Notes: generated by a model from the letters alone, not told the origin. A stretch of DNA of 64,000 nucleotides from Calditrichia bacterium (GCA_050633245.1 JBOEGD010000004.1:77866-141865); one strand, 5' to 3'; positions 1 to 15,928 are shown, counted from the first letter of the stretch. Translations and numbers: made by a program.

Positions 1-35
1 AATGTTCAATGTTCAATGTTCATAATTCATAATTA
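1..35. repeat. 7-bp tandem repeat (AATGTTC)x3 followed by (ATAATTC/A)x2, truncated by the window edge
   Basis: Read directly: aatgttc aatgttc aatgttc ataattc ataatta. The reverse-complement unit recurs at 44594-44619. Confidence 0.85.
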
Positions 36-53
36 ATCAACTGATAGATTGTC

Positions 54-878
54 GTGTCTGCTCACCCACTTCGAAAAAATAACGCTATCGATCCTTTTCT
101 GGAACTCCAGAGCAGTGCTAAGAGAATCTTGCCTGAAGCGCATAAGGAGTTTGACGGTCCTTTTTTTCAGGATATCTCTTACTATATTTCCAAAAAGCTT
201 CCCAATCAATTAACACAAAGTGAATTGATTTCTATTTTACAGGAGGCTCTGGTTCGCCTGTCCGAAAAGCTGAACGAGTCAGAGGAACAGGTGCTAAAGC
301 CAGTAGCATACTACCGAACGATTGTCCGCAATCTTGTTAATGATCTTTATCGAGACCTTCTTCGAGACGAACGATTTCTTATTTCAACCCCAGCCGTTTT
401 GGAGCTTAAGGAATCCGGGGTTCCCAAAGAGCTTGTCAGAGAACTGGAAAAAGAGATATCCCCCAAACTATTGGCTTTACGCACGCTTCAGGATAAATTA
501 AAAACAATTTTTGAAGCGCTTGACTATAATGAACAGACGCGTCGCTATTTTCAAGGATTTGCCAGGCGATGCTTTCAGCAAAAGGGCCAAATACAAATGA
601 AGCCGGAATGGCTGGCGAATGTTCCCGATGATGTTCCTGCAGAAGATGCGATATCTTTACCACTTAATTCCTGTATTGAAGAGTTGGATAGTGTGGATAG
701 GGATTTGATTCGGCTACGCTTCGGGATCTTTTCTGGAATGGATGGTTTTCAATTTAGCTTTGAAGAACTAAAAGATATATTTGACTACTCATCTGTGCGG
801 AAAATACAAAATCGTTACTATTATTTATTGAAGCAATTGCGTCAATGTTTAGAGGTTAAAGGTTATCCATTTGGATAG
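54..878 (+). CDS. Atypical ECF-type (sigma-70 family) RNA polymerase sigma factor
   Basis: Region-2-like ILQEALVRL...YYRTIVRNLVNDLYR and region-4-like LNSCIEELDSVDRDLIRLRFG...SFEEL...LKQLRQCL. GTG start, 9 bp upstream of a zinc-finger anti-sigma gene. Confidence 0.75.
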   Translation: MSAHPLRKNNAIDPFLELQSSAKRILPEAHKEFDGPFFQDISYYISKKLPNQLTQSELISILQEALVRLSEKLNESEEQVLKPVAYYRTIVRNLVNDLYRDLLRDERFLISTPAVLELKESGVPKELVRELEKEISPKLLALRTLQDKLKTIFEALDYNEQTRRYFQGFARRCFQQKGQIQMKPEWLANVPDDVPAEDAISLPLNSCIEELDSVDRDLIRLRFGIFSGMDGFQFSFEELKDIFDYSSVRKIQNRYYYLLKQLRQCLEVKGYPFG

Positions 879-887
879 AAACGCAAA

Positions 888-1778
888 GTGAAAACCATGA
901 ACGAAATAAAGCAATACAGCTTTCTCGTTGATCAGCAGGGGCACTGTAGTGTCGAAGGCGAGCGTGAGCAGGTTCTGGAACGTTATCTGTTGTCGGCTAT
1001 GTCCGAGGAGGAGTCTTCGGCTTTCGTTGAGCACCTCTTGTTTTGTCAGAAGTGCAGTCGTGAACTAAAATTCCGTGAGCAGCTGCGTCAATCGCTGCGG
1101 AACAAGCCAGTTGATGAACAAATTGCGGCAAGGGCTGAGGCCGTTTTAGAAGCACGAGTGCGGTCAGGCGCTTCTTCTGTAAAATGGTATCGCTATGCTG
1201 CGGTTGCGGCAATTATTTTGTTGATGTCAATTCCAGTCTATCTGTATTCGACTGCAAAAATGCCGCTTACAACATGGGGCGAACTTGCTGTTATTTCTGA
1301 AGAGGATAAAAAACCTGTTCTGCTACAGTCTCTGGATTCTTCAACTTTCGATAACTATAATCAAGCCGTAAATACTCTATATGAAGCGCAGCCAAGAGGG
1401 CGCTGGATTTTTGCTCAACCGCTTGACTCTGCCGGTGTACGTTCTGCCATCTCGTCACTTGAAGACTCTTACCGACAATCTCTTCCCCGAGATGTGCATG
1501 TTGATGTTACAATCTACTTGTTCAAAGCGAACTTGATGCTAAATCATCCTGGAAGGGCTATTGAATGGATGAACAGGGCGGTCGAAACACGGGCAAACCG
1601 TTTGAAAATGGAGCGTTGTTTAGAACTTGTTCAACAGATGCGCCGTTTTACAAAAGGCCCACGCGGTTTAGGTGGTTTGAAAAGTTTCATGAGGAGGCCA
1701 AACAAATATGCTCATTTGGATGTTCGTCTTTCTATGATCGAGAGGGAACTGAAGTATATGATTGACCGACGAGAATAA
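888..1778 (+). CDS. Membrane-anchored zinc-finger (ZAS/zf-HC2) anti-sigma factor with a C-terminal helical/TPR-like extracytoplasmic domain
   Basis: LERYLLSAMSEEESSAFVEHLLFCQKC contains HxxxCxxC, followed by one TM helix (YAAVAAIILLMSIPVYLY). Lies directly downstream of the sigma gene. Confidence 0.8.
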   Translation: MKTMNEIKQYSFLVDQQGHCSVEGEREQVLERYLLSAMSEEESSAFVEHLLFCQKCSRELKFREQLRQSLRNKPVDEQIAARAEAVLEARVRSGASSVKWYRYAAVAAIILLMSIPVYLYSTAKMPLTTWGELAVISEEDKKPVLLQSLDSSTFDNYNQAVNTLYEAQPRGRWIFAQPLDSAGVRSAISSLEDSYRQSLPRDVHVDVTIYLFKANLMLNHPGRAIEWMNRAVETRANRLKMERCLELVQQMRRFTKGPRGLGGLKSFMRRPNKYAHLDVRLSMIERELKYMIDRRE

Positions 1779-4700
1779 AACCTGCCCAGAAAAAAGGATG
1801 CTGGAAATCTTCGGATTGCTGGCAAGCCACTCTCGCTGCCCGCAGCGCCGTCAATTTGTCCCCGCCACTTAGAAGTGCTTCATAAAATGCTTTAAAGAAA
1901 AAGCTTGAGCTGCGATTCTCCGTCTTCCATAGTGCTACCAAAACGTTGCGGGCGCCAGAGTGTAGAAATGCCTGACAAGGCCCTATCAACCCCTCACCGG
2001 CAGACCAATCGCCACGTCCGGATTCACAACCATTGAGAACAACCAGTTCGGCACTCAACTCAAGACTATAGATTTCTCCCGGTAAAATGATGCCGTCGGA
2101 ATTCTTGTCGGGACTTAGAATGAATCCTGAAAGTGCCGGGTTTTGCTCATCATAAAACCCGTGAGTAGAAATATGAATATGGCTAAAGTGATTAAGCTGA
2201 CCGGAGAAGAGCAGAGTTTCATTTGCGGATTCTCTGATCTTAACCTGAACATCTGAGGTAAATAAGTCGGACAGCCAGCTTGGCAAATAGCTTTGGCTCT
2301 TCAGGAAGATATCAGCTATGGTTTCAACCTCGGTAATGCTATAGGGTAATGGTGGAATGGCGGAGGAATTTGTCGAATCTCCGGCAGCCAATAGTTTGGT
2401 GATCCGATGCAGCTTTTGCTGGTTCTCAGATTTTTTTTCAAAGCCTGGTGCTATCCCAAGAAAGCTATTTGTTGCCTTCTTCTCTGATGAACGTTTAGGC
2501 TCTGCGTAGAGAAGGGTTGCAGAATAAGAATAGCTCAAGCTACGCTTATTCGAGAGAAATGGAAGCGAGCTATAGGCCTGTAATCGACCTAAAGTGGGAC
2601 GCTCTGTTAGTAAAGCAGAAAATGGAAAGTCGAAAAAACGCTGGTCAGGTATTATGATCAACTGGCTTTCACCAAGATGCTGCTCGAATGGCCGAAGTAA
2701 TGAATCATATAGTGCAGATGCACTTCTACTGAATTGTTGATAGTCGTCTGTGAATCCACTGATATTATTCTTAAAGGTCGAATAGTGTTTATTGAATACG
2801 CTATCCATTCTTACCGTATTGGCCAACAGACTGTCTTGCGTTAAAGCAAAAATATGTAGTGAGTCTCCGCTTGTAAAAAGCTCGAGAAGGCTACTGCCGC
2901 TGGCGGAGAGTGTGCTTTGCAAAAGGCGAATATCAAGCTTGGCAGAATCTTGTTGAAAAAGCAGACCTGCCGGGATGCTGCTCTCTATGTTCAGTTTCAA
3001 TCTGCGATAACGAGAGGTCAGATTTGTAATACTATCTTCAAGAGCAGTAGCTTTCGTTTGCTGCTCCGTATTACCCATAGCGTCAATAAGCTTGCTTGCT
3101 GTTTCCAATCTCCAGATGCGTTTTTTTAAGCTGACCTCCAGATGCCGTAGCGAATCCGGGATGGCAACATGCTCAATTACTTTCGACTCTCTCTGCAGCC
3201 TTTTCAGCATTGCGGCCTTGCTGTCGTTGGATACCTGAAAGGCGTTATAAAGATTTTCTTCCTGACCAGATGAAGCATGGCGTTTAAGATAGGCATTAAT
3301 CATTAACTCATGAAGCGGCTGAACAAACTTACCTAATGTCCAATGAAAACGATCAGAATGAATGTCTGTGCGCATTCGCTCCATTATCTGTTGCGCCAGC
3401 TCGGCAGTTGCAATTGATTCATCCAGTAGCTTGCTGTTTATCGTTTTGGAAAGCTTAAGCTGAATACCGGCTTTGGCAATTAGATGTCCCAGAGCCTGAC
3501 TGGGAAGGATTATGCTTTCAAGCAGCGGATTGTCGTTTCCTTGCAGACTATCGGGATCATTAAGCGTTACTCTCAGCCCTTCCTGACGATAAAAGAGTGC
3601 AAGAGAATATTCGCCAATGGCTTCGTGAAAGGAAGAGCGAACATCATAGTAATCGCCGAGTGTTCGGGCATACGGCGACAGATGTTCCTTGTAGATTCGG
3701 GCAGCCCTTTCCATATGAAGACGGGCTTTGGTCATTTTGCCTTGCAGCATATAGATGTTGGCCAATGAGTGCTCGGTGCTTCCTATGGCGATATTTTGCT
3801 CCTCAATCTTGTTACGGCGAATGTCCAGCGCTTTCTCCATATACTTTGCTGCCGAATCCGCCATCTCGAGGCTCAGATAAAACTGAGCCTGATTGGTGTA
3901 GTTTTCCGCCAGTCTCATCGTCGACCCGGTGCCTTGTTGAGATAAGCGAATGCGTATTGCCTCACCATTGACCTCAATTGCACGCTGAAAATTATATTTC
4001 ACATAATGAATGGCAGCCAGATTACCCAAATAACGAGCCTCAAAAAATGGGGTTAGTGGCTGTGTCTTACGAAATCGCTCCAGCCAAATAATCGCATCTT
4101 CAAATTCCTGAAAACCGAAGTGGAGTGCCGCTCTTAAATTGTATAGATCTCCCCATAAGACGCTGTCCTGATGTGCCGGATCGACAGAATCTGCGAGTTG
4201 GAGGGCTTTAGTAGTCTGCTCAATGCTTTCTATCGGCAGAGCATGGCTATAGAATGCAACAGCTTTGGCATAGGTTATTTGGGTCTCTAGAAGAGAAGCA
4301 TGCTCCTCAACACGACCAAGAACTTGAAGTGCAGAATCGCAATACACAATACTGGTATCCAGATTGCTTCGGGCAAAGAAAAATCCCTTCACATGTAGCA
4401 GACGGGCTCGCTGTTTGCTAAACTTTTCAGAATGAGGGTCGGCAAGTTGTATGGCCTCTTTCCACATGGACTGAAAGTTCCGAGACTCTTCTTGTTCCAT
4501 CAAAAAACGGCAATGGTTGATGAAGTAGCGTAGTCGCTCACCTCTTGCTCTATGGCTGGCATCTGCTGCTGCACCGCGAGCGGTAGCTATTCGCGCGCTA
4601 TCCAGTAGTGCGGACAGTCCTTCGAACTCTTGGTGATCGAGTTTGCGTTCTATCTCAATCAGCAGATTCTCTTCGCTGGTGGTGAGATTTGAATTCGCCG

Positions 4701-4803
4701 ATAAGGATGTCACGTCCCTTTCTTCGCAATTACATAGCAAAACTGATAGCAGAACGAAATTGGCGAAACGCCGACAGATAGAAAACGTGTTTCTTCTGAG
4801 CAT
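1732..4803 (-). CDS. TPR-CHAT domain caspase-like protease, possibly a lipoprotein/exported
   Basis: TPR repeats (ARYLGNLAAIHY, LAENYTNQAQFY, TEHSLANIYM). CHAT motifs LIIIPD..FPFSAL, HISTHG (catalytic His), VVLNGCESG (catalytic Cys), GARNVLVALW and HPFFWAGFILVG. Start reassigned from 5022 to ATG 4803, which gives the signal-like N-terminus MLRRNTFSICRRFANFVLLSVLLCNC. Confidence 0.9.
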   Translation of the reverse strand: MLRRNTFSICRRFANFVLLSVLLCNCEERDVTSLSANSNLTTSEENLLIEIERKLDHQEFEGLSALLDSARIATARGAAADASHRARGERLRYFINHCRFLMEQEESRNFQSMWKEAIQLADPHSEKFSKQRARLLHVKGFFFARSNLDTSIVYCDSALQVLGRVEEHASLLETQITYAKAVAFYSHALPIESIEQTTKALQLADSVDPAHQDSVLWGDLYNLRAALHFGFQEFEDAIIWLERFRKTQPLTPFFEARYLGNLAAIHYVKYNFQRAIEVNGEAIRIRLSQQGTGSTMRLAENYTNQAQFYLSLEMADSAAKYMEKALDIRRNKIEEQNIAIGSTEHSLANIYMLQGKMTKARLHMERAARIYKEHLSPYARTLGDYYDVRSSFHEAIGEYSLALFYRQEGLRVTLNDPDSLQGNDNPLLESIILPSQALGHLIAKAGIQLKLSKTINSKLLDESIATAELAQQIMERMRTDIHSDRFHWTLGKFVQPLHELMINAYLKRHASSGQEENLYNAFQVSNDSKAAMLKRLQRESKVIEHVAIPDSLRHLEVSLKKRIWRLETASKLIDAMGNTEQQTKATALEDSITNLTSRYRRLKLNIESSIPAGLLFQQDSAKLDIRLLQSTLSASGSSLLELFTSGDSLHIFALTQDSLLANTVRMDSVFNKHYSTFKNNISGFTDDYQQFSRSASALYDSLLRPFEQHLGESQLIIIPDQRFFDFPFSALLTERPTLGRLQAYSSLPFLSNKRSLSYSYSATLLYAEPKRSSEKKATNSFLGIAPGFEKKSENQQKLHRITKLLAAGDSTNSSAIPPLPYSITEVETIADIFLKSQSYLPSWLSDLFTSDVQVKIRESANETLLFSGQLNHFSHIHISTHGFYDEQNPALSGFILSPDKNSDGIILPGEIYSLELSAELVVLNGCESGRGDWSAGEGLIGPCQAFLHSGARNVLVALWKTENRSSSFFFKAFYEALLSGGDKLTALRAARVACQQSEDFQHPFFWAGFILVGQSYTSVPSRS

Positions 4804-4984
4804 AAACAGTGCGGTGTTGAGTGTCTTTTTGCTAATTGATTTGAAGAATAGCACTAAAGAGTAAAAAAAACCTACATCTATTTCAAATCCTGTCCTTTTC
4901 TGCACGTCATATAGAATAACAGCAAATTTAATGATGAGCCGAAAGTTGATCCTGTAACAGAGCATACGCTTTGAATAAGTAACC

Positions 4985-5040
4985 GGCTGTACCCGACCGG
5001 GCTGGCATTGTGCGGATGACATGCCTGGTTGGGGGCGGCT
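4985..5040 (+). other. GC-rich long RNA hairpin in the CHAT / secreted-protein intergenic region
   Basis: 4985-5002 pairs with 5023-5040: 18 positions, 5 G-U pairs on the + strand, 1 mismatch, plus an inner mini-stem. Confidence 0.5.
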
Positions 5041-5112
5041 CTTAGCGGCTTAACCATGAATCTGAACTATTGCCTTATCAGGCTTTCACACACAACCAGG
5101 AGGATCTTAATA

Positions 5113-5226
5113 ATGACGTGTAATAGATTTATAACTGCAAAGTACGTATTGATATTACAAAATTCTGCCTTACGGAGACCGTTAAACAGACGTTGGCAGT
5201 CTGGAAGTTCGTGCCTTTTCAATTAG
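5113..5226 (+). CDS. Possible 37-aa small ORF / leader peptide
   Basis: AGGAGG at 5098-5103, 9 nt before ATG 5113. Peptide MTCNRFITAKYVLILQNSALRRPLNRRWQSGSSCLFN has no recognisable domain. Confidence 0.3.
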   Translation: MTCNRFITAKYVLILQNSALRRPLNRRWQSGSSCLFN

Positions 5227-5269
5227 CTGTTTATTTCGCATATCATTTTTCTATAAAAGGGGAATCACC

Positions 5270-7939
5270 TTGAAAAAATTGACAACCACTCTATTCTGTT
5301 TATCCATTTCTCTGCTTAGTTATACATCTGTATTTGCCCAAACGTCATTGAACTTTGGGCAAACAAATAACAGCGCGATTTCCACTCTTGGGGAAGTAGA
5401 TTCGTATACATTTGATTTCACCGGGACTTTCTCAGAAACCGTTATTATTCGTATGGCTGAGCCAACGTCTACAACTTTCAGTTGTCTGGTAAAGGTGTTT
5501 GGGCCAAATGGTATTGAGCTTGCAAATGTGGCCAATAACCTTAGTGCCGAGGTTATCCTGACAAACTTATCGAACGGTACGTATACGATAACAGCTGAAG
5601 AAAACGGCGGGAATGCCACAGGCCCGTATTCGCTTTTTGTCCAACGCTCAAAAGATGCCGGAAACCCGATAGCTCTGGATTTTGGTGTTAATGGCACTTA
5701 TAGTCTTCCTGGTTACGGTGATGTAGACACCTATACTTTCGATATTACAGAAGGCATCGGACAATCAGTTATCGTTCGTATGTCTGACTTACCAAATACA
5801 TCTTTCTATCCCACCATGCGTATTTTTAGTCCCAGCGGCCAACAGATTGGCTTTGAAGGAACACCAACTTGCGCTGAGTTCACCTTCAACGTTGTTGAAC
5901 TTGGAACGTATACTATTTGGGCCTATGAAGGTGGTGGTGATCAAACCGGTGCTTATGGAATGGTTGTTCAAAAATCATTGAATGCCGGCAGCAGTTCCCC
6001 GCTTGCATTTGGGGATAATAGCAGTAACACGATCGCAGCCTTTGGCCAGGTCGATACCTACACGTTTGATATTACAGAAGGCATCGGACAATCAGTCATT
6101 ATTCGTATGACTGACTTACCAAACACCTCCTTTTATCCTACAATGCACATCTTTAGTCCTGACGGCCAACAAATAGGTTTTGAGGGATCGCCCACTTGTA
6201 GCGAGTTTATATTTACAGTAGTCGATACCGGTCAGTATACCATTTGGTCCTATGAAGGTGGTGGTGACCAAACCGGTGCATATGGAATGGTCGTACAAAA
6301 ATCTCTTAATGCCGGAAATACTGCAGCTGTCGCCTTTGGCGAAAACGGCAGCAGCACCGTTGCGACCTTCGGACAAATTGATTCTTATACGTTCGATATT
6401 ACAGAAGGCGTAGGTCAGTCGGTAATTATTCGCATGTCCGATTTACCAAATACTTCTTTTTATCCCACGATGCGCATTTTTAGCCCCAGCGGCCAACAAA
6501 TATCTTTCTCAGGTGCCCCAACCTGTGCCGAGTTTATTTTCAATGTTGTTGAATTGGGCACCTATACGATCTGGGCTTACGAAGGTGGAGGAGATCAGGT
6601 TGGCGCATATGCTCTGCTTGTGCAAACTTCGTTGAATGCCGGTAGTAGTTCCATGCTTTCTTTTGGAGAGAATAGTAGCCATACCGTAGCTGCTTTTGGT
6701 GAGGTCGATACCTACACCTTTGATGTCTCAGAAGGTATCGGTCAGTCAGTTATTATCCGTATGTCAGACTTACCCAATACGTCTTTTTATCCAACAATGC
6801 GCATCTTCAGTCCAAATGGACAGCAAATTGACTTCTCAGGTGCACCGACCTGTGCCGAGTTTATTTTTACGGTTGTCGATACCGGTCAATATACAATCTG
6901 GGCTTATGAAGGAGGTGGCGATCAGACTGGCGCATATGGAATGCTTGTGCAAACGTCGTTGAACGCCGGAAATACAACTTCTGCAGCCTTTGGAAATAAT
7001 AGCAGTAGCACGATTGCGACCTTTGGTCAAGTCGATAGCTATACCTTTGATATTCTGGATGGTGTTGGACAATCGGCAATTATTCGAATGTCAGACTTGC
7101 CAAATACTTCGTTCTATCCGAATTTTCGAATTTTCAATCCGAACGGGCAGCAAATTGGTTTCGTAGGTTCGCCGATTTGTGCTGAGTTTGTTTTTAATGT
7201 CGTAGAGCTTGGTACGTATACAATCTGGGCTTATGAAAGTGGTGGAGACCAAACGGGTGCTTATGGCATGGTGGTTCAAAAATCCTATCAGCCGGGTGAG
7301 GCTATAGAAATTTTTCAAGGAACAATGATTACCGAAACGATTGCGACCTTTGGGCAGCTGAAAACATTTGACTTTTATTTCCCGGGGCCGGTAGGGGGAA
7401 CTGTTGATCTTCAGATGATGGAAATTCAGTCCAGCTCATTTGCCTCACAGCTGACCTTATTTGCACCAGATGGTCAGCAGCTTGCTGACGTTGTTGGAGT
7501 GACAATTGCAGACATCGTTGCCGTCTTGCCTGATACCGGACGATATGCCGTTTGGGCACGTGAGTCTGGAGGAGATGTTACAGGGGTATTCGAGTTGTCG
7601 CTCGATTTACCTCTGGGAATCGGAGATGATGTTGAAGAGCCTGTTCAGGCATTACCAACAGAGTTTGCTCTTCGTCAGAACTATCCGAATCCGTTTAATC
7701 CGACAACGAGTATTGCCTTTGCGCTACCGCGATCCGAAGCGGTTAACATAAGCGTTCTAAATATTAATGGCCAGTTGGTGCGCACCTTAATTTCAAATGT
7801 GAACTTTGTAGCCGGAGAGCATGTCATTGAATGGGATGCACGAGACGACAGGGGAGGGGCTGTTTCCAGTGGCGTCTATTTTTATCGTATCCACACAGCA
7901 GACTTTTCATCCGTCCGCCGTATGATATTACTTCGCTAG
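5270..7939 (+). CDS. Secreted protein with seven ~109-aa PPC-like beta-sandwich repeats and a C-terminal FlgD-Ig/T9SS-type sorting domain
   Basis: TTG start after AAGGGGAA. Signal peptide ends VFA-Q. Repeats follow the pattern G(Q/E/D)VD(T/S)YTFD...IFSP.GQQI...G.YTIW..EGGGDQTGAY. C-terminus LRQNYPNPFNPTT...WDARDDRGGAVSSGVYFYRI...RRMILLR. Confidence 0.9.
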   Translation: MKKLTTTLFCLSISLLSYTSVFAQTSLNFGQTNNSAISTLGEVDSYTFDFTGTFSETVIIRMAEPTSTTFSCLVKVFGPNGIELANVANNLSAEVILTNLSNGTYTITAEENGGNATGPYSLFVQRSKDAGNPIALDFGVNGTYSLPGYGDVDTYTFDITEGIGQSVIVRMSDLPNTSFYPTMRIFSPSGQQIGFEGTPTCAEFTFNVVELGTYTIWAYEGGGDQTGAYGMVVQKSLNAGSSSPLAFGDNSSNTIAAFGQVDTYTFDITEGIGQSVIIRMTDLPNTSFYPTMHIFSPDGQQIGFEGSPTCSEFIFTVVDTGQYTIWSYEGGGDQTGAYGMVVQKSLNAGNTAAVAFGENGSSTVATFGQIDSYTFDITEGVGQSVIIRMSDLPNTSFYPTMRIFSPSGQQISFSGAPTCAEFIFNVVELGTYTIWAYEGGGDQVGAYALLVQTSLNAGSSSMLSFGENSSHTVAAFGEVDTYTFDVSEGIGQSVIIRMSDLPNTSFYPTMRIFSPNGQQIDFSGAPTCAEFIFTVVDTGQYTIWAYEGGGDQTGAYGMLVQTSLNAGNTTSAAFGNNSSSTIATFGQVDSYTFDILDGVGQSAIIRMSDLPNTSFYPNFRIFNPNGQQIGFVGSPICAEFVFNVVELGTYTIWAYESGGDQTGAYGMVVQKSYQPGEAIEIFQGTMITETIATFGQLKTFDFYFPGPVGGTVDLQMMEIQSSSFASQLTLFAPDGQQLADVVGVTIADIVAVLPDTGRYAVWARESGGDVTGVFELSLDLPLGIGDDVEEPVQALPTEFALRQNYPNPFNPTTSIAFALPRSEAVNISVLNINGQLVRTLISNVNFVAGEHVIEWDARDDRGGAVSSGVYFYRIHTADFSSVRRMILLR
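5660..7290 (+). repeat. Intragenic tandem repeat, 327-bp period, five highly similar copies (plus two divergent flanking copies)
   Basis: The equivalent GAT (Asp) codon of YTFD falls at 5741, 6068, 6395, 6722 and 7049, exactly 327 bp apart. Confidence 0.9.
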
Positions 7940-7980
7940 TAAACAAACGATCTCAAGAGTCTCGTAAAAGTGACAGTCCG

Positions 7981-10848
7981 TTATGCTGTTTCCTCAACCA
8001 GTCGGTCTGTCACTTTTTCTTTCCACTGCTTCAGCTCTTCAGCAACGTAGGTGCCGGTATAGGAGGTCTTGTGCCTGGCCAATTTTTCCGGAGCGCCGGT
8101 TGCGATTATTTTACCGCCATTGTCTCCACCTTCAGGGCCAAGGTCAATTATCCAGTCCGCCGTTTTAATGACGTCAAGATTATGTTCAATAACAACCACT
8201 GTATTGCCTTTCTCAACAAGTCTGTCCAGCACGCTAAGCAGCATCTGAATATCGTCGAAATGCAGACCGGTTGTGGGCTCATCAAGTATATAGATGGTTC
8301 TTCCGGTTCCTACTCGGGAAAGTTCTGTTGCGAGCTTCACGCGCTGTGCTTCGCCACCACTCAGTGTTGTTGCTCGTTGTCCCAGTTGAATATAGCTTAA
8401 GCCAACATCAAATAGCGTCTGTAGCTTTCGTTTGATACGCGGGATTTTATCAAAAAACTCCAACGATTCTTCAACCGTCATTGCCAGCACATCAGAGATC
8501 GACTTGTTGCGATAGCGAATTTCCAAAGTCTCCCTATTGTAGCGTTTACCGTTGCAGGTCTCGCAAGTCACGTAGACATCAGGCAGGAAGTGCATTTCAA
8601 TCTTCTTAACACCATCGCCCTCACAAGCCTCACATCGTCCGCCTTTTACATTGAAACTAAAACGGCCTGGCTTATAGCCACGAATCTTAGATTCGGGTAG
8701 TTGAGTAAATAAATCGCGAATGTGAGTAAAAAGCCCGGTGTAGGTTGCCGGATTAGACCTTGGTGTGCGTCCAATTGGCGATTGATCGATATCGATAACC
8801 TTATCGAGATTCTCAAGCCCCTCAATTGTTTTATAGGGCAGTGCTATTTTCTTGCTGTTGTGAAAATGAGCGGCCAAAAGGGGATAGAGCGTGCTGTTTA
8901 TTAAGGTGCTCTTACCTGACCCCGAAACACCGGTGATCGCTGTAAACGTCCCTAATGGAAAGGTTGCGGTAACGTTCTTCAGGTTGTTGCCGTTTGCTCC
9001 CTTTAAGACTAGCTTCTCGCCATTGCCCTTGCGTCGTTGCGCAGGCACCGAAATATATTTTTCAAACGATAAGTATTGACCGGTAGTAGAGCCGGGAGTT
9101 GCAGCAACCTCTTCGGGGGTCCCGGCGGCAACTATTTCACCACCATTCTTGCCCGCTGCGGGACCAAGGTCTATAACATAGTCGGCTTTTTCAATCGTTT
9201 CGCGGTCGTGTTCAACAACCAGAACCGTATTCCCCAGATCACGCAGGTGAATAAGGGTTTCAATCAATCGACTATTGTCGCGTTGATGCAGTCCGATAGA
9301 TGGTTCATCTAACACGTATAAAACGCCAACGAGTTGACTACCGATTTGTGTTGCAAGCCGGATGCGCTGCGCTTCACCTCCGGAAAGTGTTCCCGCCGTT
9401 CTACTTAGGGTCAGATAATCAAGGCCAACATTTAACAAAAATGATAGCCGGCTCTTGATCTCTTTTAATATTTGCTCGGCGATAATTGTATCGCGTTTCG
9501 ATAGGGAGAGGCCATCGAAGAAATCGTAGGCCTTCCGAATGTTTAATGTAGTTACATCTGCGATGTTTCGCTTGTCTATTCGCACCATCAGAGCTTCCGC
9601 TCTCAGACGTGCGCCGTTGCATTCCGGGCAGCTTACGTCATTCATGAAGCCCTCTATCCAGTTTCGGATGTGGTTAGAGCCGGTCTGACGATACCGTCGC
9701 CATAGATTGTTTATTATTCCCTCGAATCGAACAGCAAATTCGTATTTGGCGTGCTTCCGCTTTACTTTTACGTTAATGCGACTGTCACCACTACCATGTA
9801 AAATTAAATCGCGAACATCCTGGTCCAATTTATCCCACGGAATATTTAGATCGAAACCTGCGTCCTCAGCTAGCGCGTAAATCATTTCAAATTGCCAGCT
9901 GGAGCGCTCAGCACCAACCGGTGCGACCGCTCCTTCTGCAATACTTAGGCTGCTGTTAGGCACCAACAGACGTGGATCGAGTTCTTTTTTACTACCAAGT
10001 CCATCACAGGATTGGCAGGCCCCGTATGGGCTATTGAAGGAAAATGTTCGTGGCTCCAGTTCTTCAAAACTGACGCCGCAGGTATTACACGAAAACTGCT
10101 CACTAAAAAGCGTTTCTTCATCTGCATCAATGTTGTCGAGAATAACCAGTCCGCTCGCCATTTTCAGAGCCGACTCAACCGACTCGGTCAAGCGCTGTTT
10201 CCCCTTCGGTTGAATCTTAAGGCGATCAACAACGACTTCAATATTATGCTTAATTTTTTTATTGAGCGAAATCTCATCTTCAATGCCGTGTAGTTTGCCA
10301 TCCACACGTACGCGTACATAACCCTCGCGCTTAATTTCTTCGAAGAGTTCGCGATACTCGCCCTTTCGACCGCGAACTACCGGGGCAAGAATCTGCACCC
10401 GAGTGCCTTCCGGAGTTGCAAGTATGGCATCCACAATTTCCTGAGGCGTTTGACGGGTGATGGGCTTGCCGCATTTGCTGCAATATGGTACACCAACGCG
10501 AGCATAAAGTAGCCGCAGATAATCATAAATCTCGGTAACGGTTGCGACTGTTGACCGTGGATTTTTGTGCGTTGTTTTTTGCTCAATCGAGATGGCAGGG
10601 GAGAGGCCATCTATATAATCGACATCTGGCTTTTCCATTAAACCAAGAAATTGCCGGGCATAAGCGCTTAGAGATTCAACGTAGCGACGTTGTCCTTCGG
10701 CATAGATGGTATCGAAGGCAAGACTGGATTTACCAGAGCCTGAGAGACCGGTAATTACAACCAGTTTTTCTCGTGGAATATGGACGTCTATGTTTTTGAG
10801 ATTGTGTTCGCGGGCGCCTTTTACGACTAAGAAATCTTTTTTCGACAT
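7981..10848 (-). CDS. uvrA: Excinuclease ABC subunit A
   Basis: [19 protein letters not shown], two [11 protein letters not shown] signatures and zinc fingers. Likely start ATG 10848 (MSKKDF). Confidence 0.98.
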
Positions 10849-10932: not shown

Positions 10933-11116
10933 GCGTTATTTTAAGAGAAAGGGCAATATCAACAGTTTTTATCCGAGTAAAGGGTAGCGTTTTTTGTTTT
11001 TTCAGTTACGCAACAAATGATCTGCATCATCTTCAATTTATGTGAACAAAATTACTATTTCTTTATTGAATCTTGAGTTGAATCCAACCAAAGCGACACC
11101 GCTGAAGAGTAGTATT

Positions 11117-14100
11117 ATGGATGATACGATTTTCAGGAAGTTTGAAAATACGCGCAAAGAATTGCTTGATCTCGATCTGCGAAACGTTCGCTTGAATTTT
11201 CGCAATACAGCTAAGCAAATCACGGTATTGCAGCCTTCTACCGCCCATTGCTTCAACCATCTGGTTGAAAAGGGATTGCCATTTTCCTTCCTGCCCAACA
11301 ACACGCAATTGCGCGATGAGGATACCGATACCGATGTTCCTTCAGTCGCGCTATTGGATGAAGATGCTGAGTCTGAGTACTCTCGCTCGACCGAGACGCT
11401 CGCCGATTCGCAACTGCTTACCCGTCACAAAACGGAATCCCTACAAAAACGCCTGCTAAAAATTCATGCTGACTCTCGTTTGTATCTCGAAGAACGCGGA
11501 ATTAATGCGTTATACCTCGCTACCGGCTTCCTGCATTGGTTTGATGAAAAAAGTAGCGGAGAGTTACGAAAAGCTCCACTTTTATTAATTCCGGTAGAAT
11601 TACTCCGTGCCGATGCCAAGTCTGAATATGAGTTGATATATACCGGTGAAGATATCGACTTCAACGCCGCCCTGGTAGAAAAGCTTTATCACGAATATCA
11701 TCTAAAAATTCCACTGATAGAGAGCGCAGAGAACATCTCACTGGATTATTTTTTCCGCCAGGTTCAGGAAGCAGTAGCAGAGAAGCCCACCTGGAATGTA
11801 GTTCCTGATGAGGTGCATCTGGGTATTTTTGCCTCCGGTCGTTTTCAGATGTATAAAGATCTGGACACCGCTCTCTGGCCAAGTGATAAAAAGCCTGATG
11901 AACATCCGTTGATAAATACGATCCTCGGTCTTGGGTTTATGGAAGATGAGAAGATGGAGATGCCTGACTCCATCGATCGCTATTTGGAGCCAAAAGGCCT
12001 TCCACTGATCCTGGATGCAGACGGTTCACAAACACAGGCGATTCTGGCCATGAAAGCTGGAAAGAACCTGGTTGTGCAAGGCCCCCCCGGAACGGGTAAG
12101 TCGCAAACGATTGCCAATATGTTGGCAACAGCAATAGCACTCCGCAAGAAGGTGTTGTTCGTTTCCGATAAGCGAGCTGCACTTGAAGTGGTGAAGCGTC
12201 GTCTCGATGAAGCAGATATTGGCGATCTGGCGCTTGAGTTACACAGCCAGAAGGCCACAAAGAAAGGTTTTGTTCAGGAGCTTGCACTGGCTTTGGAACC
12301 TGCCGGGCTAAAAAGCCGCGATGGACTTGATGAGGTTACAACGCTTATCAGACATCGTAAATCTGTGAACGATTACTTTCGTATTATTACCATGCCGATT
12401 GGCAATTCGCAAACCTCTTTTTTCGACGCTGCCGGGCAAATTTTAAAACTTTCGCCGGAAGATCCACATCGACCTACAGAGTTCGACAGCACACAAATGG
12501 TCGATTGGGAAGAGACAGACTATACCCAGTTTCGCAGTAAAGTTGAGGGGATTGCCGATTATTTACTGCATACCGGCACCCGCAAAGGAAATCCATTCAA
12601 TGAATCACGCCTCATTCAGTTTCTTCCTACCGAAGAAGCTGCCCTTAGAGACGAGTTGAATCAGCTGCTCGCAACGATTAAAAAGCTTTTCGAACAGTCC
12701 TCAACCTTCGCAGGAAAATTGCAGCTTTCCTATAGCGATACCATTGTTGGCATCACTGAAATGTGTACAATTGCCAAGCTTATTGAAAGCTCGCCTGAAC
12801 TAAGCGGCATGAAACTGGATTCGCAGTTCTGGTTAAAAGAAGATGCAAATATTCGAAAGCTCCTCGAGTCGGGAAAGCGTCATACCGATATCAGACGTAA
12901 GCATAGACAGACATTTGTAACCTCAGCCTGGAATACCGATCTCAGTGAAACTCGCGCCATACTCAATCTGAATAGCTCGAACAAGCTGCGTAAATTCTCT
13001 GCTCGTTATCGTGCTGCTTGTGCTCAGCTTGCCAGCATCATGAATTACGAGCCGCCTGATTCATTTATTGAACAGATGGAGCTGATCGATGCGGTGCAGG
13101 AAGCTCAAAAGCTGCGACGTATTATAAAGAAGCACGACAATTTGGCCGGAATAATCTTTGGCCCACATTGGAAAGGCGTACACTCAGACTGGAATCAGCT
13201 ATTAGCTGCCACAGACTATGTGCAGGATGTGCAGCGCCAAATAGATGTAGAAGCTTTGCCTGAAACCGTCTTGGTCGCACTGGGAAGAACCATTCGCAAA
13301 GAAAAACTGGGAATGGCTATTATGCGCATAACTAAACTTCAGGACGAACACATTGATCAGGCAATGAAAGTGCAGCAGCGGTTGCAGCTAAACGTCGAAG
13401 AAGGTGAAGAGGCCGATTGGGGACGCAATTTAACCGAACAAATGAAACTCCTGAAATCCTGGATTAGTAACTTGCCGCAGCTGCGCCAAACCACCGCATT
13501 GAATAATCGCCTCCAGGCCCTCAGGGAGACGGGAGCAGACTTTCTGGCAGATCAGTTACTGCACTGGAAAAAATCTCCTAAGACAATCTTATGGGAATTT
13601 GACTATGCCTGGTATTTTGGTCTGATCAATCGTGCCTACGGAGACCATCCCGAACTCAATGGACTTGATGGAATTGCCCTGGCGCAGCATCTTACCAAGT
13701 TCCGTAAGTTAGATCATCTGCTTCAACGCTATAATCGTCTGCGTCTCCGCAATTTTTATCTAACCAATCGCAAAGAAGCTGGCCATGATGTTCAAATGAA
13801 TATCATTAAGCGCGAGGTTCACAAAAAGCGACTGCACATGCCGGTTCGTAAGCTCTTGGAAGAAGCTGGTGATGCCATTCAGACGCTCAAGCCAATCTTC
13901 ATGATGAGCCCGATGTCTGTTTCAACATTCCTGCCGCGGGGCGCTATTGAATTCGATCTTGTTATCTTTGATGAAGCCAGTCAGGTTCGCCCGGCCGATG
14001 CTTTTGGCTCGATCGTGAGGGCAAAACAGTTGATTGTGGTGGGAGATGAAAGACAACTACCTCCGACGCGCTTCTTCGAACAGCAGTTCTCCGAAGGTGT

Positions 14101-15928
14101 TACTCCTGATTACGACAGTACAAAAGCGAATGAAAGCATTCTCGATTTGCTACTTTCCCGTAACACGCCATCACACATGTTGCGGTGGCACTATCGCAGC
14201 CGCCATCAGTCTCTGATTGCGGTATCCAATCGTGAGTTTTACGATAACGGGATTCTCATTTTCCCGGCAGCGGGCTACGAAACTGATGCCAGCGGACTTT
14301 CTTTTGTTCATTTACCTCACACGCATTACGAGCGTGGGAAGTCTGCCACAAATCCAATGGAAGCTCATCTTGTCGCAAAAGCGGTTATTGATCATGCTCG
14401 CCGTTCACCACATCTTACGCTCGGTGTAGTAGCATTTAGTATGAGTCAACGCGATCGCATTCAGCTTGAACTGGAAGCACTGCGTAAAGCAAACCCCGAC
14501 TGCGAAGGTTTTTTCGAATCGAATAAATTAGAGCAGGTATTTGTAAAGAATCTTGAAACGGTGCAGGGAGATGAACGCGACGTTATTCTAATCAGTATTG
14601 GTTATGGCAAGGATGATAAAGGCGCCATGGGCATGAACTTCGGCCCGCTAAACCAGGATGGTGGCGAGCGACGATTGAATGTGTTGATAACCCGTGCGCG
14701 AAAAGCATTAATCGTCTATGGCAATTTCTTACCGGAAGAGTTAGATCTTGAACGCACTCGCAGTGTCGGTTTACGTGCCTTGCGCAATTTTTTACACTAC
14801 GCAAGAACTGGGCGTCTGGAATTCTTCGATACGGTTGGAAAGATGCCGGAATCTCCCTTTGAACAGGCTTTGCTTGCTGCGCTGCGCAACAATGGTATTC
14901 CCGTTGAACCCAAGGTTGGTACAGCAGGCTGCTTTATTGATATTGCTGTAAAAGATCCGCGCGGTGATGGCGGCTATCTGCTTGGAATTGAATGCGATGG
15001 TGTAGCCGATGCCAATACGCGTTCGGCTCGGGATCGCGATCGTATTCGACACGAAATTCTCGAAGATCTTGGCTGGCGTCTCTATCGCATTTGGAGCACA
15101 GACTGGTATAATAATCCACAGTTCGAGATGGATCGCCTCCTGGAAGCAATCGAAGAAGAGCGCAAAAGTCGTCCCGCGCCTGCACGAAAATGGACACCAC
15201 CGGTTGATCAGGAAGTCCCGCGTGCGCAATCCAAATCTACTTCTGAGCCTGTCTCACAGGCAGAGCCCGAGCCGGAAGTCGAGCCAAAACCGAAAGCAAG
15301 ACCAGGAACTCTCGATTTTGATGATGAAGACATGGAAACCGGTCTGACGCCATCGCAAAAGATGGTAATTGCTATTGCCAAACCCTATGAAATGGCGCGT
15401 GTCTCTACGCCAAATAGTGGAGACGAAATACAGAGAATGCCAACCGGTCAGCTGTTGAATCAGATTAAAACAATTGTTCGTATTGAATCACCAATCCATT
15501 TTCAGGCAATTGCACATCGTTTTCTTGGCACCGTGAACGGAAAGCCCAGTGACCAGCGCAATGTCGACAGATTGAGAGAGGTGGTGAATTCCGGCTGCAC
15601 GACTGAAGCTTTTTATATGCGTGAAAATTTTTTATGGGCGATGGCAAAGAAACCACCGGTTGAAATTCGTGACCGCGCATTATTGCCAGATTCAATGCGC
15701 CGTCTTGAATGGATTGCACGAGAAGAAATTGCCATGGCTTTTGACCGTATTGTGCGTGCTGCGGGTCCGATTAAAATACACTCCGCAACACAGGAGGTCA
15801 GCAAGATTCTTGGAATGGGCTTTCCGCACACTGAAGAAGAACATTTGTTAAGCAATGTTGGATTATTTTTAGTTGAGAATGGTTATTTGCATTTGGACAA
15901 CCAAAATCAACTGCGAGTTGCCGGCTAA
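11117..15928 (+). CDS. DUF4011 / SF1 (Upf1-like) helicase / Vsr-like (DUF559/MTES_1575) nuclease / DUF3320 protein, Hhe-like architecture
   Basis: N-terminal LLDLDLRN..LNF and EERGINALYLATGFLHW..APLLLIPVEL. Walker A QGPPGTGKSQT, then FDEASQ, VGDERQLPP, LRWHYRS, VQGDERD, RRLNVLITRA, ESPFE..GIECDG..LGWRLYRIWSTDW and IVRIESPIH. Likely start ATG 11117 (ORF is open from 11042). Confidence 0.9.
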   Translation: MDDTIFRKFENTRKELLDLDLRNVRLNFRNTAKQITVLQPSTAHCFNHLVEKGLPFSFLPNNTQLRDEDTDTDVPSVALLDEDAESEYSRSTETLADSQLLTRHKTESLQKRLLKIHADSRLYLEERGINALYLATGFLHWFDEKSSGELRKAPLLLIPVELLRADAKSEYELIYTGEDIDFNAALVEKLYHEYHLKIPLIESAENISLDYFFRQVQEAVAEKPTWNVVPDEVHLGIFASGRFQMYKDLDTALWPSDKKPDEHPLINTILGLGFMEDEKMEMPDSIDRYLEPKGLPLILDADGSQTQAILAMKAGKNLVVQGPPGTGKSQTIANMLATAIALRKKVLFVSDKRAALEVVKRRLDEADIGDLALELHSQKATKKGFVQELALALEPAGLKSRDGLDEVTTLIRHRKSVNDYFRIITMPIGNSQTSFFDAAGQILKLSPEDPHRPTEFDSTQMVDWEETDYTQFRSKVEGIADYLLHTGTRKGNPFNESRLIQFLPTEEAALRDELNQLLATIKKLFEQSSTFAGKLQLSYSDTIVGITEMCTIAKLIESSPELSGMKLDSQFWLKEDANIRKLLESGKRHTDIRRKHRQTFVTSAWNTDLSETRAILNLNSSNKLRKFSARYRAACAQLASIMNYEPPDSFIEQMELIDAVQEAQKLRRIIKKHDNLAGIIFGPHWKGVHSDWNQLLAATDYVQDVQRQIDVEALPETVLVALGRTIRKEKLGMAIMRITKLQDEHIDQAMKVQQRLQLNVEEGEEADWGRNLTEQMKLLKSWISNLPQLRQTTALNNRLQALRETGADFLADQLLHWKKSPKTILWEFDYAWYFGLINRAYGDHPELNGLDGIALAQHLTKFRKLDHLLQRYNRLRLRNFYLTNRKEAGHDVQMNIIKREVHKKRLHMPVRKLLEEAGDAIQTLKPIFMMSPMSVSTFLPRGAIEFDLVIFDEASQVRPADAFGSIVRAKQLIVVGDERQLPPTRFFEQQFSEGVTPDYDSTKANESILDLLLSRNTPSHMLRWHYRSRHQSLIAVSNREFYDNGILIFPAAGYETDASGLSFVHLPHTHYERGKSATNPMEAHLVAKAVIDHARRSPHLTLGVVAFSMSQRDRIQLELEALRKANPDCEGFFESNKLEQVFVKNLETVQGDERDVILISIGYGKDDKGAMGMNFGPLNQDGGERRLNVLITRARKALIVYGNFLPEELDLERTRSVGLRALRNFLHYARTGRLEFFDTVGKMPESPFEQALLAALRNNGIPVEPKVGTAGCFIDIAVKDPRGDGGYLLGIECDGVADANTRSARDRDRIRHEILEDLGWRLYRIWSTDWYNNPQFEMDRLLEAIEEERKSRPAPARKWTPPVDQEVPRAQSKSTSEPVSQAEPEPEVEPKPKARPGTLDFDDEDMETGLTPSQKMVIAIAKPYEMARVSTPNSGDEIQRMPTGQLLNQIKTIVRIESPIHFQAIAHRFLGTVNGKPSDQRNVDRLREVVNSGCTTEAFYMRENFLWAMAKKPPVEIRDRALLPDSMRRLEWIAREEIAMAFDRIVRAAGPIKIHSATQEVSKILGMGFPHTEEEHLLSNVGLFLVENGYLHLDNQNQLRVAG

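Follow-up and report, generated by a model that had tools for sequence, protein, structure and literature searches.

The 64,000-nucleotide stretch of Calditrichia bacterium DNA analyzed here (GCA_050633245.1 JBOEGD010000004.1:77866-141865; "the window," with positions counted from its first letter) opens on a group of genes that putatively places an alternative sigma factor under the control of a caspase-fold protease. After a short piece of intergenic DNA (1 to 53), the plus strand encodes a divergent sigma-70-family factor of 274 amino acids (54 to 878) and an anti-sigma factor of 296 amino acids (888 to 1778). Convergent with these, on the minus strand, is the gene for a protease of 1,023 amino acids that joins tetratricopeptide repeats (TPRs) to a CHAT domain and is predicted to be exported (1732 to 4803); the 3′ ends of the anti-sigma and CHAT genes overlap tail to tail by 47 nucleotides (nt; 1732 to 1778). 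Across a divergent intergenic region (4804 to 5269) lies the gene for a secreted protein of 889 amino acids with PPC-like repeats (5270 to 7939, plus strand). All four open reading frames (ORFs) are present where the original prediction, made from the sequence alone, had mapped them. We consider it highly probable that the sigma factor, anti-sigma factor, and TPR-CHAT protein form one functional unit; the membership of the repeat gene is doubtful.

The sigma factor, anti-sigma factor, and protease

Judged by its profile matches and predicted fold, the product of 54 to 878 is a highly divergent sigma-70-family factor and not a minimal extracytoplasmic function (ECF) sigma factor. Its matches to Sigma70_r2 (E = 0.011, 15.9 bits) and to TIGR02937 (sigma70-ECF; E = 4.7e-7, 29.6 bits) fell below the curated cut-offs of 24 and 42.9, respectively. 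An AlphaFold model built on an 11-row alignment (predicted local distance difference test [pLDDT], 80.1) had 17 matches in the PDB at E ≤ 1e-3, every one of them a sigma factor with regions 2-3-4, the best being SigA, sigma-32, sigma-S, and FliA, and the nearest named clusters in the ESM Atlas were sigma-70 families. In the model, about 90 residues with four helices lie between regions 2 and 4, with a helical insert at residues 112 to 175, and it is because these roughly 65 to 90 additional helical residues occupy the position of region 3 that we do not regard the protein as a minimal ECF factor. The linker between regions 2 and 4 is thus not short, as it is in ECF (group 4) factors, and the ECF family cut-offs are not reached. 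Of the earlier label "ECF-like sigma," then, the sigma-70 assignment holds on fold and ESM Atlas neighbors, but the typical ECF character does not. The family is also extremely sparse: a profile of four members searched against 1.84 billion representative proteins returned 18 at E ≤ 1e-3, of which the weak tail matches that were scanned are genuine sigma factors aligned through regions 2 and 4, and a word-indexed search of 5.8 billion clusters returned 5 proteins. With only 5 representatives at E ≤ 1e-30 in the profile search, the family would widen the known range of sigma-70 architectures.

The anti-sigma factor (888 to 1778) appears to carry an N-terminal, cytoplasmic zinc-binding anti-sigma (ZAS) domain of the CHCC type. 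Residues C20, H49, C53, and C56 (C20...H49-x3-C53-x2-C56) are invariant in all 11 aligned anti-sigmas, and a match to zf-HC2 that is weak in the window's protein (E = 0.041) rises above the cut-off in some relatives. In the structural model (pLDDT, 74.5), the helical N-terminal domain is followed by one long hydrophobic transmembrane (TM) helix (100 to 122), which overlaps conserved AA/L alignment columns, and by a poorly structured linker of about 28 residues (123 to 150), in which W130 and Q147 are invariant in the six anti-sigmas of the window's own type (type A). Beyond the linker, the model has a five-helix TPR-like outer domain (151 to 256; pLDDT, about 90), a disordered stretch (257 to 274), and a conserved terminal helix (275 to 293). 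We infer from the cytoplasmic ZAS domain that this C-terminal part lies outside the membrane. With the anti-sigma model as query, Foldseek returned nothing at E ≤ 1e-3. Its top local alignments were to small TPR modules, and the scaffold of DdvA, a Myxococcus xanthus protein discussed below, was not matched.

The convergent gene (4803 to 1732) encodes a CHAT domain (E = 4.8e-51) with the motifs HISTHG and LNGCESG, whose catalytic His881 and Cys926 (numbered from the 4803 start) are invariant in 15/15 aligned CHAT proteins. The reading frame is open to 5022, and the 4803 start is correct because the 73-residue extension upstream of this ATG is not conserved in orthologues. From 4803, the protein begins with a basic-hydrophobic segment followed by a Cys, at residue 24 in the window, an arrangement present in all five CHAT orthologues. 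This call of export was made by inspection and from conservation, and by the lipobox rules we take the N-terminus to be that of a lipoprotein. Such a signal would place CHAT outside the cytoplasm and within reach of the outer domain of the anti-sigma. When the PDB was searched with the CHAT domain sequence, the sole match was DdvA (8rot_B; E = 5.9e-6; E = 9.4e-6 with a profile). The picture first drawn from the sequence, of a ZAS anti-sigma with one TM helix and an extracytoplasmic domain convergent with a TPR-CHAT protease that starts at 4803 and has an intact dyad and a lipoprotein-like N-terminus, is therefore upheld by conservation across relatives and by the anti-sigma model.

Recurrence of the triad and its relationship to known systems

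Full-length homologues of the sigma factor occur in 4 of 61 related genomes, the window's own included (3 among 60 relatives), and in each genome the homologue adjoins a near-full-length homologue of the anti-sigma. Two scans of public contigs recovered three genome loci again and contributed two new ones from metagenomes. In all six type-A loci, a sigma-70-family gene adjoins the anti-sigma gene; the window's sigma factor falls below the ECF model cut-offs, and its fold matches those of three-domain sigmas. A TPR-CHAT gene encoding 1,012 to 1,032 amino acids lies tail to tail with the anti-sigma gene in 4/4 loci that extend far enough to show it (the window, L034, L035, and L040); the L039 contig stops just past the sigma gene and was excluded from this count. 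A fifth genome has the sigma/anti-sigma pair on a 2.2-kb contig, and its orthologous CHAT gene (E = 3e-146) is cut off by the end of a different contig. A survey of gene neighborhoods, the check proposed alongside the original prediction, thus finds the three genes co-conserved. Two outcomes that were named beforehand as refuting that prediction, a lack of co-conservation and a CHAT protein without an export signal, are therefore not what the relatives show.

Four further triads (type B) were located where weak matches to the ZAS part of the anti-sigma coincide with CHAT matches. Each combines a canonical ECF sigma (Sigma70_ECF, r2, r4_2), a zf-HC2 anti-sigma of 233 to 258 amino acids, and a convergent TPR-CHAT gene, which in one triad is split into 758 and 194 amino acids. 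Their flanking genes differ, and the outer domain of their anti-sigmas is unrelated and beta-rich. CHAT and anti-sigma genes are convergent in all eight triad loci examined, an arrangement that would allow transcriptional interference or antisense effects. Looking more widely, we surveyed 29 non-self TPR-CHAT loci of the phylum with about 1.5 kb of flank each, 3 of which offered no flanking ORF; the flanks of the others hold 66 ORFs, of which 38 were scanned, 24 were in loci already annotated, and four short ones were left out. A sigma and/or zf-HC2 gene lies within about 1.5 kb in 11/29, these 11 coming from 11 genomes in two families, a count that is descriptive and not a statistical test because the genomes are kin, and protein kinases are the neighbors instead in two. 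Taken together, these sequence comparisons indicate that sigma/anti-sigma pairs are linked with exported TPR-CHAT proteins repeatedly, rather than in one isolated case.

The closest known system is DdvS/DdvA of Myxococcus and not Craspase, the precedent named in the original prediction, which did not cite the periplasmic TPR-CHAT anti-sigma DdvA (PMC11506125). As described in that paper, DdvA is a single chain that runs from a CHCC ZAS domain through a TM helix and a flexible linker to a periplasmic scaffold-TPR-CHAT part (PMC11506125). The window's genes match this description in the CHCC anti-sigma domain, the single TM helix, the flexible linker, the TPR-CHAT protein with its His/Cys dyad, and the adjacent sigma gene, and an RseP-type Peptidase_M50 protein (446 amino acids) is encoded in the genome, so that the protease required downstream in the DdvA scheme is available. 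Unlike DdvA, the anti-sigma and TPR-CHAT parts are two genes on opposite strands, CHAT has a lipoprotein-type signal of its own, and the anti-sigma has retained an outer domain, small and TPR-like. CHAT is a separate gene in 8/8 triad loci, no search for fused relatives of the window's anti-sigma having been made; the DdvA authors restricted their search to fused forms, which they detected in Myxococcota and one Comamonas (PMC11506125). Unlike DdvS, the window's sigma factor is three-domain-like at 274 amino acids and belongs to an extremely rare family, whereas type-B triads have canonical ECF sigmas. DdvA/DdvS is described as controlling an anti-phage defense island with CBASS (a cyclic oligonucleotide-based anti-phage signaling system) and type III-B CRISPR; no CBASS or CRISPR island lies near the window's genes, and no Cas1 turned up in the 97%-complete genome, in which Cas7-11 was not looked for. 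We therefore regard the window's module as real and as a split variant of this recently described kind, to be set beside DdvA/DdvS but not counted as a member, because the fusion is lacking and there is no defense island.

Craspase, the type III-E CRISPR effector, consists of Cas7-11 with the TPR-CHAT protease Csx29, Csx30, and CASP-sigma, and is cytoplasmic and RNA-guided. It shares with the window's module a TPR-CHAT protease tied to the release of a sigma factor from its inhibitor. Unlike in Craspase, the window's protease is predicted to be exported and the inhibitor is a ZAS membrane protein; the absence of CRISPR and cas genes first noted for the window is confirmed in that none of its ORFs has a cas domain. 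In Actinobacteria, ECF54 is described as linked to TPR-CHAT, with no recognizable anti-sigma and with a carboxypeptidase-regulatory-like protein and a subtilase (PMC7826278). The conserved genomic link of a sigma factor to a TPR-CHAT protein is common to both, but the window's module has an anti-sigma and neither a carboxypeptidase-regulatory-like protein nor a subtilase. Our literature searches found no paper on a split module of sigma, anti-sigma, and exported TPR-CHAT, and the supplement of the ECF reclassification may list more CHAT-linked groups.

The window's genome encodes seven large TPR-CHAT paralogues, all with signal-like N-termini, and in two of the clusters (contigs 12 and 18) the neighbors are divergent sigma-like and single-pass proteins. 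On contig 18 (L042; G000:C18:62001-80000), one strand carries genes for a 215-amino-acid sigma-like protein (Sigma70_r2, E = 7e-5), a Cys-rich protein of 139 amino acids, a single-pass protein of 342 amino acids, and a TPR-CHAT protein of 1,137 amino acids, adjoining genes for a Peptidase_C14 caspase/alpha-beta-hydrolase protein of 1,104 amino acids and a NACHT protein of 902 amino acids. The contig-12 cluster (L041; G000:C12:86001-104000) has a 217-amino-acid protein resembling the contig-18 sigma-like one, a Cys-rich protein of 134 amino acids, a single-pass protein of 400 amino acids that is homologous to its contig-18 counterpart (BLASTP E = 2e-7), two proteins without known identity, and two TPR-CHAT genes (979 and 1,097 amino acids). 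The profile of the window's sigma family matched the contig-18 sigma-like protein at E = 0.086, and hhalign of the anti-sigma profile against the contig-12 and contig-18 single-pass proteins (E = 0.0026, probability 11.5%; E = 0.56) did not support homology. On contig 5 (L043; G000:C5:29001-47000), CHAT is wired to a different output: a TPR-CHAT gene (988 amino acids) is followed on the same strand by genes for a 315-amino-acid protein, a CHASE2-Ser/Thr kinase, and a GAF/sigma-54 activator. In the closest relative, known from a metagenome, a further TPR-CHAT gene (L040:967-4065; 1,032 amino acids) lies beyond aconitase, and none occurs at that place in the window's genome.

These paralogues bear on a simpler explanation, that CHAT is a mere neighbor of the sigma operon or a member of the sigma regulon, with the tail-to-tail order producing transcriptional interference at most. 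Convergent genes with 3′ overlaps in five loci (47 nt in the window, 23 nt in L034 [4544 to 4566], 17 nt in L040 [9656 to 9672], and 4 nt each in L076 and L077) are what such an arrangement would look like, and because other CHAT paralogues pair with a CHASE2 Ser/Thr kinase and sigma-54 activator, CHAT proteins are not tied to sigma systems as such. Against this, the pairing recurs in paralogous systems and in 11/29 CHAT loci, and in DdvA, as described, both parts are one polypeptide; genes that are fused in one lineage and adjacent in another are a classical sign of direct functional coupling. We therefore hold a mere neighborhood to be quite improbable.

Promoters and the genes divergent from CHAT

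Just outside the window and directly upstream of the sigma gene lies a co-directional gene for a leucine-rich-repeat (LRR) protein of 306 amino acids (G000:C4:76771-77691, equivalent to L031:350-1270; L040:7014-7928; L039:902-1666). It precedes the sigma gene in all three loci of the window's subclade and is absent from the second subclade. Its product looks cytoplasmic, without a signal-like N-terminus, and has many invariant Cys, His, and Trp residues. The gene is preceded by a strong GAAGGAG ribosome-binding site and, 61 to 63 nt before its start in 3/3 loci, by invariant CGTAAC, TTT, and CGT-A elements (CGTAAC-YTT-N13-CGTWA; GTAAC-N16-CGTWA) in the aconitase-LRR intergenic region, an AAC/CGT pattern that we take to be of the usual ECF type. 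Of three occurrences of the strict pattern in the 6.3-Mb genome, this is the only one that is not inside a gene. Between the LRR and sigma genes, upstream of the window, a second conserved element (TTGAC[A/T]-N17-[T/C]AT[G/A]TT; 3/3 loci) resembles a sigma-70 promoter. Between this and the sigma start are three tandem AATGTTC heptamers (window 1 to 22), with a second set about 90 nt upstream; these are absent from the short L040 spacer and could serve as an operator or be prone to slippage.

Neither strand of the CHAT/repeat gene intergenic region (4804 to 5269) or of its L040 equivalent yielded an ECF-type motif. A relaxed scan of window positions 1 to 8100 gave one match, within the sigma gene and on the opposite strand, and generic scans for sigma-70 promoters and terminators were not above shuffled sequence (17 versus 12.9 ± 3.3 and 7 versus 7.4 ± 2.8, respectively). 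Because the ECF-type motif stands upstream of the LRR gene and none occurs in 4804 to 5269, the best-supported candidate target of the sigma factor would be the LRR-sigma-anti-sigma operon itself, by analogy with autoregulation elsewhere, and not the repeat gene.

The repeat protein (5270 to 7939) has seven repeats of about 109 amino acids (327-nt period) with similarity to PPC domains and a C-terminal sorting domain of the type IX secretion system (T9SS; TIGR04183, E = 2.3e-15, 56.3 bits against a cut-off of 23; Por_Secre_tail, E = 3.2e-10). Together with an N-terminus (MKKLTTTLFCLSISLLSYTSVFAQ) that is signal-like by inspection, these features are those of a T9SS type A cargo, in keeping with its earlier description as a secreted seven-repeat protein. 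When tblastn was run with the repeat protein against the whole genome, very many of the matches listed were to its last 100 or so residues, on many contigs, so proteins sorted by the T9SS must be very numerous in this genome. The second subclade has, in place of the repeat gene, a gene for a small outer-membrane beta-barrel (OMP_b-brl) divergent from CHAT, followed by a lipoprotein gene. The barrel genes in all three loci of that subclade (L034:771-1340, L035:627-1358, and L049:67-627) share 58 to 66% identity and are far better conserved than the sigma, anti-sigma, or CHAT genes (about 26 to 38%).

The original prediction went further and held that CHAT is the site-1 protease and that the freed sigma factor transcribes the divergent repeat gene from 4804 to 5269. 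A repeat gene is indeed kept divergent from CHAT in the locus of the closest relative (L040; 40% identity, 671 amino acids, five repeats). However, this synteny carries little weight because L040 is flanked by the same housekeeping genes as the window (aconitase and uvrA), so that common ancestry suffices to explain it. The ECF-type motif is missing from the intergenic region in both loci and conserved upstream of the LRR-sigma-anti-sigma operon instead, and the repeat gene is absent from the other subclade. A canonical ECF motif may not be the promoter of this sigma factor, which leaves some room for the proposal, but in our view it is very unlikely to hold in full. The PPC-repeat/T9SS gene is probably not the output of the module and is a neighbor conserved in one subclade.

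The rest of the window is mostly housekeeping (nrfHA, leuS, ileS, dnaG, sodA, rpoN, and others). PADLOC had no match for the four proteins encoded at 54 to 7939 or for the LRR protein. The one candidate defense gene starts 3 kb past the end of the repeat gene and is separated from the module by uvrA: it encodes a helicase-like protein of 1,628 amino acids (11042 to 15928, plus strand) that is matched over its full length by PADLOC PDC-S37 (E = 0) and also matches Hhe (E = 6e-192).

Putative proteolytic control of the anti-sigma

In the Sigma-E/RseA/DegS/RseP pathway, a periplasmic protease senses an envelope signal and clips a single-pass anti-sigma, after which a site-2 protease acts. The same logic of regulated intramembrane proteolysis can be proposed for the window's module, with the differences that the candidate for the site-1 step is a cysteine protease of the caspase fold, with TPRs as sensors, rather than a PDZ serine protease and that the anti-sigma is ZAS-type and not RseA-type. 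We propose that the CHAT lipoprotein in the periplasm would sense a protein signal through its TPRs and, as site-1 protease, would clip the outer part of the anti-sigma at the linker or the disordered C-terminal tail. An RseP-type site-2 protease could then cut the TM helix and free the sigma factor, which in turn would act in positive feedback through the ECF-type promoter upstream of the LRR gene that heads the LRR-sigma-anti-sigma operon. Basal expression may come from the sigma-70-like promoter directly upstream of the sigma gene. The DdvA paper offers a parallel: self-cleavage in trans upon a signal is proposed there as the site-1 step, with RseP acting next, and RseP dependence is shown for a truncated form of DdvA (PMC11506125). 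We give the full split reading, in which CHAT controls the anti-sigma by proteolysis, about an even chance.

Complex prediction with CHAT residues 146 to 1014 and anti-sigma residues 120 to 250 gave 0.42, 0.00, and 0.00 in its runs, which weighs neither for nor against that reading. Several points do weigh against it. The CHAT gene faces the sigma operon from the opposite strand and is not part of its transcript, so that a regulatory link is putative, and binding and cleavage of the anti-sigma by CHAT are likewise predicted. The sigma and ZAS family matches of the window's own proteins are below curated cut-offs. ECF factors are known to autoregulate, and it is by analogy with this that the ECF-type motif is assigned to the window's sigma factor; that factor is atypical, and the genome's other ECF sigmas could use the site. 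A search for dyad motifs in the second subclade (L034, L035, L012 or L049) found no common promoter. Even in DdvA, cleavage by CHAT is only proposed, and dyad mutants are without phenotype in unperturbed cells (PMC11506125).

CHAT could also work with the sigma/anti-sigma pair without cutting the anti-sigma, which would then be an inhibitor or pseudosubstrate, in the manner of securin and separase, or a docking site. The true substrates of CHAT would be other envelope proteins, such as T9SS cargo or the outer-membrane barrel, and the sigma factor would be released by partner exchange or by a different site-1 protease. An envelope protein is encoded divergently from CHAT in both subclades (PPC/T9SS in 2/2 loci; OMP_b-brl in 3/3), the outer part of the anti-sigma is modeled as a folded TPR-like module with a disordered stretch and a conserved terminal helix, and separase/securin control of TPR-CHAT is cited in the DdvA paper (PMC11506125), all of which fit this alternative. 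On the other hand, the outer domain of the type-B anti-sigmas is quite different and yet CHAT is kept, which fits a flexible-linker substrate better than it does an inhibitor with a defined fold. We regard regulation by docking or inhibition as unlikely.

A broader form of the proteolytic reading can be imagined in which CHAT would do the work of DegS with a caspase fold. Through its TPRs, it would monitor envelope proteins in transit, namely T9SS PPC-repeat cargo in one subclade and the small outer-membrane barrel in the other; upon a defect or attack, CHAT would cut the anti-sigma in trans and free an unclassified three-domain sigma whose first target would be the cytoplasmic LRR protein, with several parallel copies of the system in the genome (the contig-12 and contig-18 clusters, the latter beside the Peptidase_C14 caspase and NACHT proteins). 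We consider this comprehensive scenario a long shot. If true, it would describe a transmembrane LRR/TPR/caspase-like pathway reminiscent of innate-immune wiring.

The logic of the split module follows from DdvA. The sigma factor is exceptionally divergent, and an LRR gene as its likely first target was unexpected. Tractability is limited because the organism is uncultivated and represented only by a metagenome-type assembly. In DdvA, protease and substrate are one chain; because they are separate here and can be mixed, mutated, or titrated, the question of the site-1 protease becomes directly testable in the split system. The two triad types and the 11 of 29 CHAT loci with sigma or zf-HC2 neighbors suggest that exported CHAT proteins may form a widespread and so far undescribed class of inputs to alternative sigma factors that does not depend on CRISPR.

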